Shown here piece by piece: positions 1,701-37,437 of a stretch of DNA of 64,000 bases (position 1 is its first letter; each line of letters starts with the position of its first letter). The stretch is from sequence record NC_055712.1; one strand, given 5' to 3'. The notes under the pieces are model-generated. The model was given only the letters and a program-made list of their open reading frames with translations. It was not told where the DNA came from and did not search any database. Position numbers and translations under genes: made by a program. The stretch comes from Escherichia phage phT4A.

Positions 1701-1979
1701 TCAATGTCCGAACACACCACGAATAGACTCTGCGAATGCATACAGTTCAGGATTTTTAGCTTTCACTGTTTCGATTTGTTCCAGAATGTAATCTGGCTTG
1801 TATTTCGCACCGAACCAGCAGTAAGAGAAAGAGCGATCCCACATGAACACGTTATAGTATTCACCGTTGCGAACTTCAACCATCACATAACCAGGATTAG
1901 AACCCAGCGGATAATCTTTCAGAAGATTGAATTTCGCGCCAGCACCAGTACATCCGTTAAACAGGTCATTAAAAGTCAT
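1701..1979 (-). CDS. hypothetical protein
   Basis: 92-aa ORF. Confidence 0.45.
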   Translation of the reverse strand: MTFNDLFNGCTGAGAKFNLLKDYPLGSNPGYVMVEVRNGEYYNVFMWDRSFSYCWFGAKYKPDYILEQIETVKAKNPELYAFAESIRGVFGH

Positions 1980-2037
1980 GGTATGTTCCTTTTGTCAGTT
2001 TCGTTTCAACAAGGTCACTATACTATTCTTCGTTAGC

Positions 2038-2571
2038 CTATGCAAGATTTAATTTAGCAAATTCTCCAAAATGTTTTATCGCTTCCTGGTCGTATGCTTT
2101 TGCAGCCTCTAACTCATCACTATAAGAACCGATATGCTTAACCTTACCATCAACCATTATCTGTGCAATGTAACGTATTCCGGTTGGTTGATTGCGTACA
2201 CATACACCCTTGAATATGCTGGTTCCTTCCTTTCGCCGTTTCCTGTTCTGAGAGTTGCGGGATTGGTTCGCTTCGCGCAAGTTATCAATCCCGTCACCAG
2301 CCTCAACACCATTTTTGTGATCAATCACATCAGGTAGTTTTCCGGTCGCAACGTAGTAGATGATTCGATGGCGTAGATACCCTTTGCTTTTGAAATAAAC
2401 GCGTGTATATCCTCCTTTGATCTTCGAACCAACTTCCTTTCCGATCAAGTCGGAACGTTTATGCGATGTTCGTATAATCTTTCCTGTGTGGACATCAACA
2501 GAAACAGTTTTGAGGAATTCATCAATTCCTCTCTGTTCTTCTTCAACTGTTCTTAATCCATTATGTGACAT
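2038..2571 (-). CDS. HNH homing endonuclease with C-terminal AP2 DNA-binding domain
   Basis: HNH core LRHRIIYYV...VIDHKNGVEAGDGIDNLREAN; AP2-like GVCVRNQPTGIRYIAQI..GKVKHIGSYSDELEAAKAYDQEA; overlaps 3' end of the methyltransferase gene. Confidence 0.75.
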   Translation of the reverse strand: MSHNGLRTVEEEQRGIDEFLKTVSVDVHTGKIIRTSHKRSDLIGKEVGSKIKGGYTRVYFKSKGYLRHRIIYYVATGKLPDVIDHKNGVEAGDGIDNLREANQSRNSQNRKRRKEGTSIFKGVCVRNQPTGIRYIAQIMVDGKVKHIGSYSDELEAAKAYDQEAIKHFGEFAKLNLA

Positions 2572-3476
2572 AACGCCTTCTTAATTTGTTTTGCTATGGC
2601 TTCAATCACTGGGATGGAAACTGAATTCCCAGCCTGTTTGTAAGCCTGTATTTTGCTTTCAGGGATGATAAACGAATCCGGAAACCCTTGTAACCTAAAA
2701 CATTCTCGCGGGCTTAATCTTCTAGGGTTCTTACCTTCCTGTAATACCAGACATTGAACACCGTCCTTTCCATATTGGGCTGTTATCGTCCCAGTACACA
2801 CAGAATCCACCATAACGGCCTGATAACCAAACCCCTTGCCGTTTGCCTTGTTTCGTTCTTTACGCTCTCTAAAGCCCTTCCAGGCACGATCTGATATGGT
2901 GTATTGATCATTATCCGGTTCGAGAATGTCACCGACCCTTGTTGGGGTACGTGGAGGAACAGGAAAACTAAAGAACACTGGATCGCGAAAGCAGACAATA
3001 AACACACGCTCTCTTCGTTGAGGCAATCCAAAATCTTTTGTATTCATTACCTGATAATGGATATCGTATCCTTCGTCCTGTAACAGCCTGTAGATGGTTT
3101 TAAACGTGTTTCCCTTGTCATGGGTTAATAGCTGGGGAACATTCTCAAAGAACAGCACAGAGGGCTTTTTAGCCCGTATAATGCGGAGTATTTCAAAGAT
3201 GATAGTACCGCGAGGATCTAACATGCCCTGTTTTAAACCTGCTTTACTGAACGCCTGACAAGGAAACCCAGCTAACAGGATATCATGATCAGGCACATCA
3301 TTTTCATCAATGGCGAATATATCACCCTGAATATTTTCATCGCCCCAGTTATCAGCATATGTTTGTTGTGCATGTTTATCGATTTCAGACGTTAAAAGGC
3401 ATTCGACCCCGCCGAATGCCTTATCGAAACCGAGCCTCACGCCACCAACACCAGCGCAAAGGTCAATTATTTTCAT
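2553..3476 (-). CDS. DNA (cytosine-5)-methyltransferase
   Basis: motif I DLCAGVGG, motif IV PCQAFS (catalytic Cys), motif VI ENV, 307 aa. Confidence 0.9.
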   Translation of the reverse strand: MKIIDLCAGVGGVRLGFDKAFGGVECLLTSEIDKHAQQTYADNWGDENIQGDIFAIDENDVPDHDILLAGFPCQAFSKAGLKQGMLDPRGTIIFEILRIIRAKKPSVLFFENVPQLLTHDKGNTFKTIYRLLQDEGYDIHYQVMNTKDFGLPQRRERVFIVCFRDPVFFSFPVPPRTPTRVGDILEPDNDQYTISDRAWKGFRERKERNKANGKGFGYQAVMVDSVCTGTITAQYGKDGVQCLVLQEGKNPRRLSPRECFRLQGFPDSFIIPESKIQAYKQAGNSVSIPVIEAIAKQIKKALCHIMD

Positions 3477-3739
3477 ACGTCGAAATCAACCTCATCGATT
3501 TTGTATGATTCTTCGCCAATATCAGCCCATAGCTGAATATTCACGCTTTTCGCATCACGATAAAGAGATTGACCACAAAGCCCACCTGTATAACAAGTTT
3601 CTGTAATCTCGTTAACTTCCAGGCGGAGGCTATTGCGCATAATTTTAACAACAGCCTTTTCCATTGCAGAATCCAGGGTTTTAGTATCACCCAATACTAC
3701 ATCTTTAACGTTCAAAATAACATCACTCATTATCGCCAC
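3473..3739 (-). CDS. hypothetical protein
   Basis: 88-aa ORF, start overlaps upstream stop. Confidence 0.4.
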   Translation of the reverse strand: MAIMSDVILNVKDVVLGDTKTLDSAMEKAVVKIMRNSLRLEVNEITETCYTGGLCGQSLYRDAKSVNIQLWADIGEESYKIDEVDFDV

Positions 3740-3975
3740 TCCGTTTCAATTCCGTGTTTGTATGCGTCAACGCCCAGAGGGGTGATCACTAAACACATAT
3801 CAGTATTTTTCGTTGGTGAACTAAACGCCATAGATGCATAACCTTTTTGAATCAGGGCATCACGCCCCGATTTACTGGGAACATCGTTGAAATCTAAATC
3901 CAACATTTTTGACGAGTATCTGTAAAGTTTACACAGAACATCAATTTCAGCGCCGGATAATTTCGGGTATGTCAT
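3730..3975 (-). CDS. hypothetical protein
   Basis: 81-aa ORF. Confidence 0.4.
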   Translation of the reverse strand: MTYPKLSGAEIDVLCKLYRYSSKMLDLDFNDVPSKSGRDALIQKGYASMAFSSPTKNTDMCLVITPLGVDAYKHGIETEWR

Positions 3976-4739
3976 TTGTAGTACCTCACAACATGTTCAG
4001 AATACACACGTTCAATGAAATCATTCCAGAAATCGCGATCAACTTCTTTCGGATAACCAGATACAGCCGCCAGCTTTTCAACTTCACACATCGTTGATTC
4101 TAGCGCCTCTTGTACGGTTGCGAAAGGAACACCGCCAGCTTTAACCATTTTCAAAAATGCGCTATCCGGAAGAGGATACACAATATCACCTTCTTTGAAA
4201 ATCTGGATCAATTGCATACCACCGCGCAACGCATGAGAAAGAGCTTTCCAGTCGATCCCGTTGTTGGCTTCTGCTTGCCGTGCGCGTTCCCCGTATTCAT
4301 CCCAGAGTTTATACACGGATTTCTTCATTTCCGCTACAGTGATCGTAGACTGGAATTTACGCCCCAGAACTTCATAAAATTCCTGACAACCTGATTTCAG
4401 TGTTTTGTCTGTAACGAATCGACAAAACTCATTGGTCGGGAATCGGTTAGAAATCTCACCAACTTTGATGCGCTTGCCGTAATTAGATTCATCCACGTTA
4501 CCCAGCAATGATGTACCATACCAGTAATCGGGAATCATTTGTAACACATCAACAACTTCACGCAGTGCCGCCAGGCGAGAACCTTTAACACCATACTTCG
4601 CCGCTTGCTTACGAACATAACCAAACAGGCCAGTTAATTCCGTAGTGTAGAAGCGCGAACGGTTAGCGCGGAGATATTGCCAGATATCAGAGTTAGCGAT
4701 CAGCTTGCTATCATCTGCATGAAGCATATCAATCGCCAC
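3972..4739 (-). CDS. hypothetical protein (5' boundary uncertain, assembly gap upstream)
   Basis: 255-aa ORF; upstream region runs into N-gap 4941-5040. Confidence 0.45.
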   Translation of the reverse strand: MAIDMLHADDSKLIANSDIWQYLRANRSRFYTTELTGLFGYVRKQAAKYGVKGSRLAALREVVDVLQMIPDYWYGTSLLGNVDESNYGKRIKVGEISNRFPTNEFCRFVTDKTLKSGCQEFYEVLGRKFQSTITVAEMKKSVYKLWDEYGERARQAEANNGIDWKALSHALRGGMQLIQIFKEGDIVYPLPDSAFLKMVKAGGVPFATVQEALESTMCEVEKLAAVSGYPKEVDRDFWNDFIERVYSEHVVRYYK

Positions 4740-4940: not shown

Positions 4941-5040
4941 NNNNNNNNNNNNNNNNNNNNNNNNNNNNNNNNNNNNNNNNNNNNNNNNNNNNNNNNNNNN
5001 NNNNNNNNNNNNNNNNNNNNNNNNNNNNNNNNNNNNNNNN
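4941..5040. other. assembly gap (100 N)
   Basis: run of exactly 100 n. Confidence 0.99.
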
Positions 5041-14346: not shown

Positions 14347-15693
14347 TTAGAAATTGTCTTCGACAAACGCCGCGAGACGGGAACGATACACTGTATCAAG
14401 AATGATATGGCTTGAGTGTTCGTATTCTTTCAGCTTTTCAACAGCCCATACAAACCCGTTGTTTACGGCAGTGTTTCGAGGGTTGTCGATCTGCTTAATG
14501 TTCCCGCATAGTATCAGAAGTGTGTTCTCTCCGCAACGAGAAATGATAGATTTAATTTCGTGGTTGCTAAGGTTTTGACATTCATCAACAATTAGCACAG
14601 AACCTTTGCCCGGATCCGGATGTCCGATACTGCGACCACGGAAGTAATACAGGCTAGGGAATTGCACCACCCCTTTTTCAATCAAACCTTCAATGTATTT
14701 TTCAGATTCCGGATTATCCTTAAACAGAATATTCAGGCTAGTAATACAAGGTTCAATAGAAGGCCGGAGTTTTTCGCCCAATGTACCAGGAAGGAAGCCG
14801 ATTTCACTTGATAACGGGCTATCTGACTTCACATACATCAAGTTAGCGTAATGTCCACTATTAACCAGGTGCATAGCACCGGAAACAGCAAGCATTGTTT
14901 TACCAGAACCAGCGCCGCCCATAATGGTAGCAACATCGATTTCATTGCTCATAATGGATTCAACGAAAGCCGCTTGCAGAGAATCACGGGGCTGGATAGC
15001 TTTCATGAGTTTGCGTTTCATCGCCTGTTCATGCTTAACAGGTAAGACATTCAAGCAAATCTCATCAGCAGTCACTACACGCCCGACTAACTCACCATTA
15101 GAGGTAATGTACTGGTTAGGATAAAAATCTTCGTCAGGAAGCGAACTGTAAGTGATTTGGGCTACATTATCCGTATATCCCAACACTTCCACGGTATCCC
15201 AGAAATCAGGGATCTCTACGTAACCGGAATACAACACATCGCTATCTTTTAACGTATCGTCGCCAGTATACTGTTCTACCTTACACCCACGGGACATTGC
15301 GATCAGCAACATCATAATATCGCGAGTAACTAAGGTTGCATCCTGCTGCATACAAGTTTCAATGATTCGTTCGTCTTGCTTGTCAAGAGCAAACGTTTTG
15401 TTTCCGACATAATCAACCACTTTAAGGGTGATAGTGTCAGACAGTGCTGGGTTTGTCAGGTTTAAAGGAATACCTGATTTCGTAATCGCATCATATGACT
15501 GACCGAAAATAACTTTTGACAGAAGCCGGATCGCCAATCGTGCTTCGTGCGCTGTTCGTTCTTTCGTTTTCAGGTGATCTAATTCACCCATAGTAGCAGA
15601 GGTAATAATGATTTCTGTACCAGGTTGAGTGAATGAATAGATTGAATAGGGGTTACTAATCAAAACATTGGTGTCTAATACGTATTTTGACAT
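14347..15693 (-). CDS. phoH: PhoH-like ATPase with N-terminal PIN domain
   Basis: PIN start MSKYVLDTNVLISNPY; Walker A GGAGSGKT; 448 aa. Confidence 0.85.
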   Translation of the reverse strand: MSKYVLDTNVLISNPYSIYSFTQPGTEIIITSATMGELDHLKTKERTAHEARLAIRLLSKVIFGQSYDAITKSGIPLNLTNPALSDTITLKVVDYVGNKTFALDKQDERIIETCMQQDATLVTRDIMMLLIAMSRGCKVEQYTGDDTLKDSDVLYSGYVEIPDFWDTVEVLGYTDNVAQITYSSLPDEDFYPNQYITSNGELVGRVVTADEICLNVLPVKHEQAMKRKLMKAIQPRDSLQAAFVESIMSNEIDVATIMGGAGSGKTMLAVSGAMHLVNSGHYANLMYVKSDSPLSSEIGFLPGTLGEKLRPSIEPCITSLNILFKDNPESEKYIEGLIEKGVVQFPSLYYFRGRSIGHPDPGKGSVLIVDECQNLSNHEIKSIISRCGENTLLILCGNIKQIDNPRNTAVNNGFVWAVEKLKEYEHSSHIILDTVYRSRLAAFVEDNF

Positions 15694-15702
15694 ACATTAA
15701 CC

Positions 15703-16227
15703 TTATGTGGTTTCGTTAAAAAATGCACCGAAAACCTCTTTTGCTTTCCGGTTATAAACGGATTTTGCTTCTTCTGGAGTGTTATAGTACCCCAAAAATT
15801 TTCTTTTTCCATCTATGTTTATCTGCGCTTTGTACTTCCCATTGGCTTTATGATAAGAAACACCTTTCAACCCTGTACTACTGTTTGAGTTACATTTCTT
15901 TTTCATCGCATTTTGCTGGTTCGTCGCTTTCTGTAAATTTCTTGCTGTATCTCCATTCTCAACACCATATACATGATCTACGATAGGAGGAAGATAACCA
16001 TTCTCAACGTAAAACACTATTCGGTGTCGCAAATACATAGAACCTTTAAAATGAATTTGGGAATACTCGTTTTTGCTTCCGGCTTCACTTCCAGGAAACA
16101 TAGGGCCGCGCTGAACTTTCCAATACACTTTACCTGTAGATGTATCAACATCTACAAAATTCAGAAGAGATTCGATCCCTTGAATCTCTTCATGTATGGT
16201 TCTTGATGAATAGCCATGACTTTTCAT
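15703..16227 (-). CDS. HNH homing endonuclease with AP2 domain (paralog of 2038-2571)
   Basis: YLRHRIVFYV...IVDHVYGVENGDTARNL; AP2-like GVSYHKANGKYKAQINIDGKRKFLGYYNTPEEAKSVYN; ATG overlaps upstream stop (TAATG). Confidence 0.7.
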   Translation of the reverse strand: MKSHGYSSRTIHEEIQGIESLLNFVDVDTSTGKVYWKVQRGPMFPGSEAGSKNEYSQIHFKGSMYLRHRIVFYVENGYLPPIVDHVYGVENGDTARNLQKATNQQNAMKKKCNSNSSTGLKGVSYHKANGKYKAQINIDGKRKFLGYYNTPEEAKSVYNRKAKEVFGAFFNETT

Positions 16228-16685
16228 TACATACCCAGCGAAATTACGTGAATATATGCTAATGGATGTTTCTTTTGTACACAATGCATGAGTGTATTAT
16301 ACACAATGTCCATGCGTTCATTGCGCGTAAGATCACACTCATCAAAAATAAGGTTTATTGCCTGGTGCTCTATTCGACGTCCACGGAAATGATTAAGAAT
16401 TGCCCCTTTACTGGTCAATACATCACATCCGGTAGCACCATTTAGCTGTTTGGCGTCTTGTGCTGCATTTAACGTATGCGCTACGTAAATGTTAAGGGAA
16501 CTATGGGAACGTTTCATAAAATCAAACGCGCCTTTAGTCTTTTGCGTTTCTCTGCCCAGATCCAGCCTGGTTTCGAATACCATAAAATCGTTAGGGCCGT
16601 AATTATGCGTTGGTTCTTCCAACTCTCGCATAAGATGCATCTTACGACATTCTTCAATTGTCTTTACATAAAATTCACTATTCAT
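16227..16685 (-). CDS. hypothetical protein
   Basis: 152-aa ORF. Confidence 0.45.
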   Translation of the reverse strand: MNSEFYVKTIEECRKMHLMRELEEPTHNYGPNDFMVFETRLDLGRETQKTKGAFDFMKRSHSSLNIYVAHTLNAAQDAKQLNGATGCDVLTSKGAILNHFRGRRIEHQAINLIFDECDLTRNERMDIVYNTLMHCVQKKHPLAYIHVISLGM

Positions 16686-37337: not shown

Positions 37338-37437
37338 NNNNNNNNNNNNNNNNNNNNNNNNNNNNNNNNNNNNNNNNNNNNNNNNNNNNNNNNNNNNNNN
37401 NNNNNNNNNNNNNNNNNNNNNNNNNNNNNNNNNNNNN
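37338..37437. other. assembly gap (100 N)
   Basis: run of exactly 100 n. Confidence 0.99.

Follow-up and report, generated by a model that had tools for sequence, protein, structure and literature searches.

SegF, SegG and MobE of bacteriophage T4 are free-standing homing endonucleases whose spread by intronless homing is accompanied by marker exclusion and co-conversion. The locus described here resembles theirs in the placing of a nuclease gene next to conserved genes, either between two of them or at the end of one, in its scattered occurrence in closely related phages and in a tract of donor sequence that adjoins it on one side only, and the distance of about 200–250 bp from the insert to the end of that tract recalls the distant cleavage of SegG. 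The T4 enzymes are of GIY-YIG or Mob type, whereas the present nuclease, termed HNH1, combines HNH with a probable AP2 domain; unlike theirs, its insert stands inside the last codons of the target reading frame and shares the stop codon, and cleavage by HNH1 is putative. The same predicted architecture of N-terminal HNH and C-terminal AP2 is found in the HNH-AP2 genes of RB43, RB16, RB49, JSE and KP15, tabulated in 2010 (PMC2993671, Table 5), and in the IPA-HNH genes of ICP1, which lie at recombination boundaries (PMC10448857); taken together, these relatives belong to the clade of the present phage and, as here, mark the limits of exchanged stretches. Neither paper describes the 3′ end of a methylase as an HNH-AP2 insertion site, which is annotated only in GenBank records. 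In ShiLan (PMC11855218), an HNH insertion element also targets a phage DNA methylase gene, the element being in frame inside the methylase there, whereas HNH1 is a separate reading frame at the extreme 3′ end and leaves the methylase intact.

Counterparts of the methylase have been described as well. RB43ORF127c was reported in 2006 (PMC1524935) and KP27_137 was reported as "Dcm" in 2013 and 2016 (PMC3620542, PMC5219037); both, together with KP15_105, are orthologous to the methylase analysed here, share its genomic position and show 77–97% nucleotide identity to it. Compared with these three, only the present copy has HNH1 in its last codons, and it also bears the HNH1-linked patch of 196 bp. 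The hmC genes, for dCMP hydroxymethylase and glucosyltransferase, are reported to be absent from KP15 and KP27 (PMC3620542, PMC5219037) and likewise from the RB43 group, and homologues of DenA and dCTPase have been retained in the clade despite this absence (PMC8056088).

The DNA analysed is a stretch of 64,000 nucleotides from Escherichia phage phT4A (NC_055712.1), hereafter the window. It shares 97–99% nucleotide identity with more than 100 Slopekvirus genomes and can be assigned by sequence to the T4-like Klebsiella Slopekvirus phages of the KP15/KP27/Miro type, and its cytosine would be unmodified in the T4-hmC sense. The locus was compared in detail across 14 loci. We consider it probable that the region combines the clade's conserved orphan methylase with free-standing HNH-AP2 homing endonuclease genes and holds no functional methylase/HNH pair. 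The locus clearly illustrates biology that is already known and does not amount to a new kind of system. The features are collected in Table 1.

Table 1. Features of the methylase locus and of the second HNH-AP2 gene in the window
Feature	Coordinates	Strand	Size	Basis
HNH1, predicted free-standing HNH-AP2 homing endonuclease gene	2038..2571	(-)	177 aa	HNH_3, phrog_99 and AP2 matches
Insert relative to HNH-free alleles	2047..2573	(-)	527 bp	Alignments with relatives
Overlap of methylase stop region and HNH1 start, in different frames	2553..2571	(-)	19 nt	Reading-frame positions
Orphan C5 cytosine DNA methyltransferase	2553..3476	(-)	307 aa	PF00145, TIGR00675, motifs
AAGAAGG, Shine-Dalgarno-like, 4 nt ahead of the ATG of HNH1	2576..2582	(-)		Substitutions in HNH+ alleles
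Methylase 3′ patch (motifs IX-X) travelling with HNH1	2577..2772	(-)	196 bp	Mismatches between window and KP27
Start of PIN-PhoH, diverged between HNH2+ and HNH2- genomes	15649..15693	(-)	First ~45 nt	Comparison with Roth22
HNH2, second predicted HNH-AP2 homing endonuclease gene	15703..16227	(-)	174 aa	phrog_99, similarity to HNH1, AP2 match

Identity and conservation of the methylase

The methylase is covered over its full length by PF00145 (profile 1–324 of 324; E = 3.3e-94; 316 bits, cut-off 22) and scores 322 bits with TIGR00675 (cut-off 100.65). Its best PDB match is M.HhaI (E = 1.5e-66), with which motifs I (AdoMet binding; DLCAGVGG, residues 5–12), IV (GFPCQ, with Cys73), VI (ENV, 111–113), VIII (QRRER, 153–157) and X (GNSV) all align; motif IX is represented by RE. 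Judged by these profiles and motifs, the protein is a member of the C5 methyltransferase family with its motifs intact, in agreement with the original prediction, which had named motifs I, IV and VI. The same prediction had regarded such an enzyme as unusual in a T4-like context, and this does not hold for the present clade, since the gene occupies a constant position in every Slopekvirus and Pseudotevenvirus (RB43-like) record found (about 175) and has been in the literature since 2006.

The genes neighbouring the methylase, a nucleotidyltransferase gene and small hypothetical ones, include no cognate restriction endonuclease. As it has no partner enzyme, the methylase is to be regarded as an orphan, most likely with an anti-restriction role. 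The truncated nucleotidyltransferase at 3972–4739 was dismissed as an artefact of a run of 100 N at 4941–5040, which replaces about 880 bp found in relatives.

Subfamily and predicted specificity

The closest characterised relatives of the methylase are the CCNGG methylases M.Kpn2kI and M.Ecl18kI of the SsoII/NlaX family, and identity to M.Kpn2kI reaches 53% across the whole methylase domain. Within the target-recognition domain 45 of 88 residues (51%) are the same as in M.Kpn2kI and M.Ecl18kI, the alignment being gapped only where the domain begins, and the phage protein shares with the SsoII/NlaX/Ecl18kI family the catalytic domain and a recognition domain of matching length carrying GKGFGY and TI(S/T)A.Y.KDG. 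M.SsoII and M.Ecl18kI possess a regulatory helix-turn-helix (HTH) N-terminus of 71 residues that is absent from the phage methylase, which begins at the position matching residue 72 of M.Kpn2kI. In this it is similar to M.NlaX, which has the specificity of M.SsoII without its N-terminal domain, the phage protein likewise consisting of one domain, about 310 aa in length (PMC3978073). The nearest bacterial homologues (59–60% identity, 307–310 aa) include one named nlaX by its source. Members of type II restriction-modification systems on plasmids of Klebsiella, Enterobacter and Shigella are the closest relatives of the methylase, and the neighbour of the near-identical pECL18 methylase matches R.Ecl18kI (PDB 2FQZ, E = 2.6e-203); the phage methylase has no such partner. 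From this sequence evidence, the methylase is a single-domain member of the SsoII/NlaX/Ecl18kI lineage.

The original prediction had called the enzyme Dcm-type, which is right as to a C5 methylase and imprecise as to the subfamily. A true Dcm orthologue was rejected on the NCBIfam model of enterobacterial Dcm (NF007772/PRK10458, CCWGG), where the score was 192 bits and the cut-off 710. The Dcm-like PDB chain 3ME5 matches with E = 6e-48, more weakly than M.HhaI. GCGC specificity, suggested by the match to M.HhaI, was rejected on the recognition domain, where only 22 of 83 residues (27%) are identical and 22 columns are gaps. GGCC specificity, implied by the name "bsuRI modification methylase" in one GenBank record, was also rejected, as M.HaeIII matches the N-terminal half only.

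By homology the most likely target is the inner C of CCNGG, or of the CCWGG subset, on which the methylase would act in replicated phage DNA. In recognition loop 1, five consecutive residues differ between the phage protein (GYQAVMVD) and the SsoII family (GYGLFNEN), so the specificity may differ as well; the window allele further reads YGKDG where the others have YYKDG. CCSGG is depleted in the window (observed/expected 0.41) and CCWGG is not (0.80), a pattern more consistent with protection restricted to CCWGG than with protection of CCNGG as a whole. A literature search found no published measured methylome for a Slopekvirus.

Such methylation would shield the genome from CCNGG/CCWGG enzymes such as Kpn2kI, Ecl18kI, SsoII and EcoRII, whose restriction systems would be met on small plasmids of the phage's hosts. 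This anti-restriction role is suggested by the homology together with the published resistance of KP15 and KP27 DNA to EcoRII despite about 280 sites (PMC3620542), a resistance that could also be explained by the host's own Dcm. A protective function had been proposed originally, and anti-restriction appears to be its best form. The methylase might instead serve the phage's own biology, by marking DNA against a DenA-like nuclease (PMC8056088) or by regulating transcription or packaging, in keeping with the DenA and dCTPase homologues kept without hmC and with the conservation of the methylase across hosts. We regard this as improbable, since about 129 sites of a 5-bp specificity in 64 kb lie too far apart to keep a general nuclease off the DNA, the nearest relatives are the plasmid restriction-modification methylases named above, and the strong avoidance of restriction sites by the genome indicates heavy restriction pressure.

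Insertion of HNH1 in the last codons of the methylase

The HNH-AP2 gene that the original prediction placed across the methylase 3′ end was recovered there. HNH1 matches the HNH (His-Me finger) profile HNH_3 with 30.1 bits (cut-off 24.8) and the phrog_99 "HNH endonuclease" family with E = 3.7e-51, and the AP2 domains of plant WRI1 (PDB 7WQ5) align with its C-terminus at E = 1e-4, the Pfam AP2 profile giving no match. By analogy, His85, Asn97 and Asn106 are its putative catalytic residues.

Comparison of the insertion site with relatives, which had been recommended at the outset, was made by alignment with KP27, Miro, KP15, phiKp_3, phiEap-3, Roth26 and pR7_1, and revealed the insert listed in Table 1, with junctions ambiguous by 2–3 nt. 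The original methylase end, CTT GCA TAG (2038–2046), now forms the last three codons of HNH1 including the stop, so that the Leu-Ala-stop of the methylase is reused by the nuclease. The methylase tail is shifted from ...KKALA in HNH-free alleles to ...KKALCHIMD in the window, the new five residues following motif X. In KP27 the methylase spans 912 nt, and in the window 1439 nt separate the methylase start from the HNH1 stop.

Just upstream of HNH1, synonymous changes in the Lys-Lys codons of the methylase convert AAAAAAG of the HNH-free alleles into AAGAAGG, through substitutions at 2583, 2580 and 2577 that are specific to HNH+ alleles against both Miro-type and KP27-type alleles; from its sequence, the motif is inferred to act as the ribosome-binding site of HNH1. 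A scan of 1900–3800 for an HNH1-specific promoter or terminator gave no excess of sites over shuffled sequence. An inverted repeat at 2512–2531 lies inside HNH1, without a T-run on the coding strand.

Distribution of HNH1 and the co-travelling patch

HNH1 is present in 14–18 genomes (18 phage records), always at the single fixed site and with an identical 19-nt overlap. Full-length copies in Slopekvirus number 14, a further copy, in KLB1, is truncated, and three Pseudotevenvirus phages (4 records) also carry the gene; about 90% of the methylase-bearing relatives are without it. Against KP27, which is HNH-free, the window has 1 mismatch in 2773–3476, 44 in 2577–2772 (22% divergence) and none in 1900–2047. 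The divergence forms a patch that directly abuts the insert and lies almost wholly on one side of it; in KLB27 it extends to 2826, the tract length differing between genomes.

These distributions bear directly on the proposal that the pair acts as a mobile selfish module, in which methylase and HNH1 would move together or the methylase would guard against the HNH nuclease in the manner of restriction-modification. In its favour, the two genes overlap, lie side by side and share their orientation, and the methylase 3′ end does move with HNH1. The methylase, however, keeps its position in about 175 genomes, of which only about 18 have HNH1, its 5′ 700 bp are 99.9% identical to those of KP27, no CCNGG site was seen around the insertion point, and the second HNH-AP2 gene is distant from any methylase. 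A joint module is largely refuted by this distribution of the genes and seems to us scarcely credible. A mobile module of the whole methylase fails because of the many relatives that have the methylase without HNH1, and what survives of the proposal is the 3′ end: only the last 196–250 bp of the methylase, not the whole gene, appear to be mobile with HNH1.

It can also be supposed that HNH1 has come down by vertical inheritance as a relic, possibly an inactive one, and that its link with the patch reflects ordinary homologous recombination among mosaic phages. Phages of this group are mosaic throughout, for example at 1409–1700; the HNH-type patch is present in Miro and KP15, both of which lack HNH1, and the copy in KLB1 is truncated. 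Against this stand an intact reading frame with HNH residues in at least 14 genomes at 95–100% identity, the same site in two genera, and a patch constantly present in HNH+ genomes with at least 2–3 different backbones on either side and beginning exactly at the insert. In Pseudotevenvirus, moreover, patch and HNH diverge together (82% and 84%) within a backbone that is 96–99% identical. A relic is on balance unlikely, although the patch could be a polymorphism that predates the insertion, its association with HNH1 then being partly linkage.

Free-standing homing remains the preferred reading, and the patch is putatively either a co-conversion tract or a cleavage-resistant allele. An origin of the patch in Pseudotevenvirus was discarded, both patch types being about equally distant from that genus (75–78%). 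Conservation of HNH1 between genera above that of its flanks was likewise not accepted as proof of transfer, the picture being mixed (HNH1 87%, methylase 78%, downstream gene 94%).

The second HNH-AP2 gene

A paralogue had been predicted between a hypothetical gene and PIN-PhoH, and HNH2 is indeed found there, upstream of PIN-PhoH (14347–15693) with the phrog_2586 gene (16227–16685) on its other side. The start adopted is the ATG annotated in GenBank relatives, the longest mechanical reading frame going to a TTG at 16284. HNH2 shares 39% identity with HNH1 (E = 6e-37), matches phrog_99 with E = 7e-55 and the AP2 domains of WRI1 (7WQ5) with E = 3e-6, and scores below the Pfam cut-offs for HNH_3 (21.6 bits, cut-off 24.8) and AP2 (23.2 bits, cut-off 33.3). 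A tblastn search of the window gave no third HNH-AP2 copy.

HNH2 occurs in 84 records, 61 at 99% identity or above and 23 at 90–95% in the other genus; it is 94.5% identical across genera, in a surrounding region that is mostly at 60–90%. Roth22 and its relatives lack HNH2, and Roth22 has an empty site and a diverged PhoH 5′ end: against Roth22 there are 13 mismatches in 15601–15720 and 0 per 60 nt further downstream through PhoH and beyond. The start of PIN-PhoH may accordingly be read from the alignments as a short flanking patch adjoining HNH2.

Proposed course of homing

HNH1 and HNH2 are best interpreted from their sequences and distribution as sporadic free-standing homing endonuclease genes, with cleavage inferred. 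HNH1 would have entered the last codons of the methylase as a 527-bp cassette. In a co-infection it presumably cleaves an HNH-free allele within the methylase 3′ region, and repair off the HNH+ genome would copy the HNH gene together with 196–250 bp of adjacent methylase sequence; HNH2 may behave likewise between the hypothetical gene and PIN-PhoH. More tentatively, and with less than even confidence, we suggest that HNH1 is actively homing and cleaves KP27-type alleles about 200–250 bp upstream of the insertion, thereby replacing the last ~65 codons (motifs IX-X) across two genera.

Implications

Overall, the "Dcm" label carried by more than 100 genomes of therapeutic-candidate Klebsiella phages would be better replaced by an SsoII/NlaX-type orphan methylase, probably of CCNGG specificity. 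The relabelling predicts which plasmid restriction systems are evaded (Kpn2kI, Ecl18kI, SsoII, EcoRII) and is of consequence for host range in therapeutic use. More remotely, differences between methylase alleles might play a part in the broad resistance to restriction, so far unexplained, that KP27 shows relative to KP15; the differences concerned are the 3′ patch, Thr/Met in recognition loop 1 and, elsewhere in the protein's recognition domain, YY/YG.

As a natural case of putative intronless homing, the HNH1 locus is a clean one. Donor tract, recipient backbone, empty site and truncated derivative are all represented among sequenced isolates, so that the cleavage site and co-conversion can be easily tested. 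If active homing across the two genera is borne out, a selfish nuclease and not host selection would set allele turnover in a counter-defence gene, the anti-restriction methylase.

Gene content and genomic setting of the methylase locus

The gene coordinates of the original prediction recur in the open reading frame (ORF) list of the window, and the identities proposed there, a C5 cytosine methyltransferase (the methylase) and two paralogous HNH-AP2 genes (HNH1 and HNH2), are borne out by matches to PF00145, TIGR00675 and PHROG 99. The 5'-most 19 nt of HNH1 overlap the methylase gene end in another reading frame, and the mechanical ORF of HNH2 reaches a TTG at 16284.

Genes at the two HNH-AP2 loci of the phT4A window
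Feature	Coordinates	Strand	Description
C5 cytosine methyltransferase	2553-3476	-	ORF, 307 aa; PF00145, TIGR00675
HNH1	2038-2571	-	ORF, 177 aa; PHROG 99, Pfam HNH_3
HNH2	15703-16227	-	174 aa from the ATG used by GenBank relatives; PHROG 99
PIN-PhoH fusion protein	14347-15693		448 aa; PIN_4 (E=6.5e-15), PhoH (E=6.9e-35); phrog_2765

More than 100 genomes of Klebsiella Slopekvirus phages, among them KP15, KP27, Miro, Matisse and PMBT1, match the region at 97-99% identity; Pseudotevenvirus genomes, from RB43-like phages of Cronobacter, Enterobacter, Citrobacter and Escherichia, match it at 76-90%. The window sequence is interrupted twice by runs of exactly 100 N, at 4941-5040 and 37338-37437. The first corresponds to about 880 bp in CP-p-KP-21068 and KP27 holding small ORFs and the 5' end of a nucleotidyltransferase gene, and therefore the 255-aa GTG ORF at 3972-4739 was rejected as an artefact of this gap. 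Downstream of the methylase locus there is a mosaic switch at 1409-1700, where the window is of the Miro, KP15, phiEap-3 and Roth26 type and is 26-63% divergent per alignment window (40-60% in most) from KP27, phiKp_3, KLB27 and CP-p-KP-21068; the latter four carry an extra 204-nt gene.

Both HNH proteins match PHROG 99 (HNH1, E=3.7e-51; HNH2, E=7e-55) and share 39% identity; HNH1 lies above the Pfam HNH_3 cut-off of 24.8 bits and HNH2 below it (21.6). Their C-termini resemble the plant WRI1 AP2 domains (PDB 7WQ5; E=1e-4 and 3e-6, respectively), with Pfam AP2 below cut-off, and no third HNH-AP2 copy was found in the 64-kb window.

HNH1 insertion and exchange of the methylase 3' end

HNH1 matches only 18 phage records: 14 full-length Slopekvirus copies (95-100% identity), a truncated remnant in KLB1, and the Pseudotevenvirus phages iPHaGe-KPN-11i, HMGUkp1 and leE. 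In KLB1 (locus record L007, 1904-2152) the truncated gene is fused to a deletion of downstream genes. The same 19-nt overlap with the 924-nt methylase gene recurs in every locus fetched.

The comparison with HNH1-lacking relatives, as the original prediction proposed, yielded exact junctions of a 527-bp insert (2047-2573). HNH-free alleles end ...AAA AAA GCG CTT GCA TAG, and HNH+ alleles read ...AAG AAG GCG TT/ATG TCA ... AAT/CTT GCA TAG, such that the 3' end of HNH1 is the original Leu-Ala-stop of the methylase. The insertion replaces the methylase tail KKALA with KKALCHIMD, and methylase activity is probably unaffected, because the new tail lies downstream of motif X, where homologues vary freely. 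Substitutions exclusive to HNH+ alleles at 2583, 2580 and 2577 convert AAAAAAG into AAGAAGG, a Shine-Dalgarno-like motif 4 nt ahead of the HNH1 ATG, which we infer to be its ribosome-binding site.

Against KP27, which lacks HNH1, the 5' part of the window methylase has 1 mismatch in 704 bp, the patch directly upstream of the insert (2577-2772) has 44 mismatches in 196 bp (22% divergence, 8 amino-acid changes), and the stretch just downstream (1900-2047) has none in the approximately 150 bp compared; the match fails again beyond about 1760. In HNH+ KLB27 the backbone to either side is KP27-like and the patch extends to 2826, and CP-p-KP-21068 carries the same patch beside a Miro-like upstream backbone. 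Between iPHaGe-KPN-11i and leE, the flanks are 96-99% identical, the patch only 81.6% and HNH1 84%. Taken together, these comparisons indicate that the exchanged unit is the methylase 3' patch plus HNH1, with a one-sided tract of variable length.

Intronless homing with co-conversion is known for the Seg and Mob endonucleases of T4 (references in PMC10448857), and the HNH1 locus shares with it the one-sided, variable-length tract, a hallmark of such homing. HNH1 is thus read as a homing endonuclease cassette, of putative cleavage activity, lodged in the final methylase codons. The methylase-HNH pair had been proposed as a mobile module; the pair does not move as a whole, and it is the methylase 3' end that hitch-hikes with HNH1. 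The patch also occurs in Miro and KP15, which have neither HNH1 nor the three substitutions of the putative ribosome-binding site; its haplotype may therefore be older than the insertion, and it may represent a cleavage-resistant allele.

The methylase, HNH1 and HNH2 all belong to known kinds; what is new here is the description of the HNH1 insertion site, the shared stop codon and a clear donor tract.

HNH2 and its PIN-PhoH neighbour

Miro, Matisse and many other phages have HNH2 annotated as a homing endonuclease. It is the second member of the HNH1 gene family and the more widespread, occurring in 84 records (61 at >=99% identity; 23 of the other genus at 90-95%, against mostly 60-90% for the 4.5 kb around it). 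The insertion-site comparison revealed that in Roth22 and relatives the site is empty, with a spacer of 55 nt; their PIN-PhoH gene differs from the window in its first ~45 nt, on the insert side, and is otherwise identical. PIN-PhoH is conserved in the clade, its 5' end being the flank affected by HNH2. HNH-AP2 genes were tabulated in 2010, with 3 copies in RB43, 6 in RB16 and 1 in KP15 (PMC2993671).

A clade-wide methylase

Nucleotide matches to the methylase gene were found in 179 phage records, 172 nearly full length, and in all loci inspected the gene lies between the same small genes and the nucleotidyltransferase gene. The orthologue RB43ORF127c was listed in 2006 (PMC1524935). The "Dcm" of KP15 and KP27 was discussed in 2013 and 2016, these phages lacking dCMP hydroxymethylase and glucosyltransferase genes and having EcoRII-resistant DNA (PMC3620542, PMC5219037), and a 2021 survey recorded a C5 methylase in these hmC-free phage groups (PMC8056088). 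The view that the gene is unusual in a T4-like context is therefore mistaken here: unusual relative to T4 itself, it is ordinary and previously reported in the Slopekvirus/Pseudotevenvirus clade. Immediately upstream of the methylase, pR7_1 has an opposite-strand 699-nt ORF (L013, 2431-3129), and in KLB27 the small upstream genes are replaced by a mobE-type homing endonuclease (L003, 5684-6442).

Lineage and predicted specificity of the methylase

The methylase is a full-length C5 cytosine methyltransferase (PF00145, E=3.3e-94; TIGR00675, 322 bits) with motifs I, IV (Cys73), VI, VIII, IX and X intact in alignment with M.HhaI, its closest solved structure (E=1.5e-66); the match to the Dcm-like chain 3ME5 is less strong, and the protein fails the NCBIfam Dcm subfamily model (192 bits against 710). 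The nearest non-phage proteins (59-60% identity, 307-310 aa; one called nlaX by its source) sit on long contigs, many >100 kb, which we take as bacterial chromosomes.

A tblastn search of plasmids gave 53% identity over the entire protein to methylases of 4-6 kb plasmids, namely pKPN2 (Klebsiella pneumoniae), pECL18 (Enterobacter cloacae) and similar Shigella sonnei and E. coli plasmids. The divergently oriented neighbour on pECL18 is R.Ecl18kI (PDB 2FQZ, E=2.6e-203), and therefore these matches are the CCNGG systems Kpn2kI, Ecl18kI and SsoII. M.NlaX has been described as a naturally occurring single-domain counterpart of M.SsoII with unchanged specificity (PMC3978073). In a joint alignment, the motif VIII-IX region is identical to M.Kpn2kI at 45 of 88 positions with gaps at the start only, as against 22 of 83 with 22 gap columns for M.HhaI. 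On these grounds the phage methylase is assigned to the SsoII/NlaX lineage and predicted to methylate CCNGG, with the caveat that the first recognition loop departs from that of the SsoII family at five consecutive residues (QAVMV in the phage, GLFNE in the family).

A further caveat comes from a maximal-order Markov model of the window, in which CCSGG, with 18 sites, is depleted (observed/expected 0.41) and CCWGG, with 111, much less so (0.80), as expected if CCWGG alone were protected; the most depleted XYNY'X' family is GGNCC (0.67). The published EcoRII resistance is explained by CCNGG or CCWGG specificity alike.

Two polymorphisms fall in the target-recognition domain: at 2769-2772, QYGKDG in the window, other HNH1+ phages and Miro, and YYKDG in KP27, KP15, Pseudotevenvirus and all bacterial homologues; at 2808-2812, AVMVD in the window and KP27, and AVTVD in most others.

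Likely protective role and restriction-site avoidance

The methylase is an orphan, as it lacks a partner nuclease. The 64-kb window lacks 24 of the 64 six-base palindromes, compared with 95 of 4032 non-palindromic hexamers; the missing palindromes include AAGCTT, CTTAAG, CCATGG, GCATGC, CTGCAG, GTCGAC, GGTACC, GAGCTC and CTCGAG, each expected 5-20 times. Published notes on KP15 and KP27 name the HindIII, NcoI and PaeI sites only. Such very strong restriction-site avoidance is consistent with an anti-restriction role, and the protective function originally suggested holds as the likely one: the methylase would shield phage DNA against the CCNGG/CCWGG restriction enzymes that are common on host plasmids.
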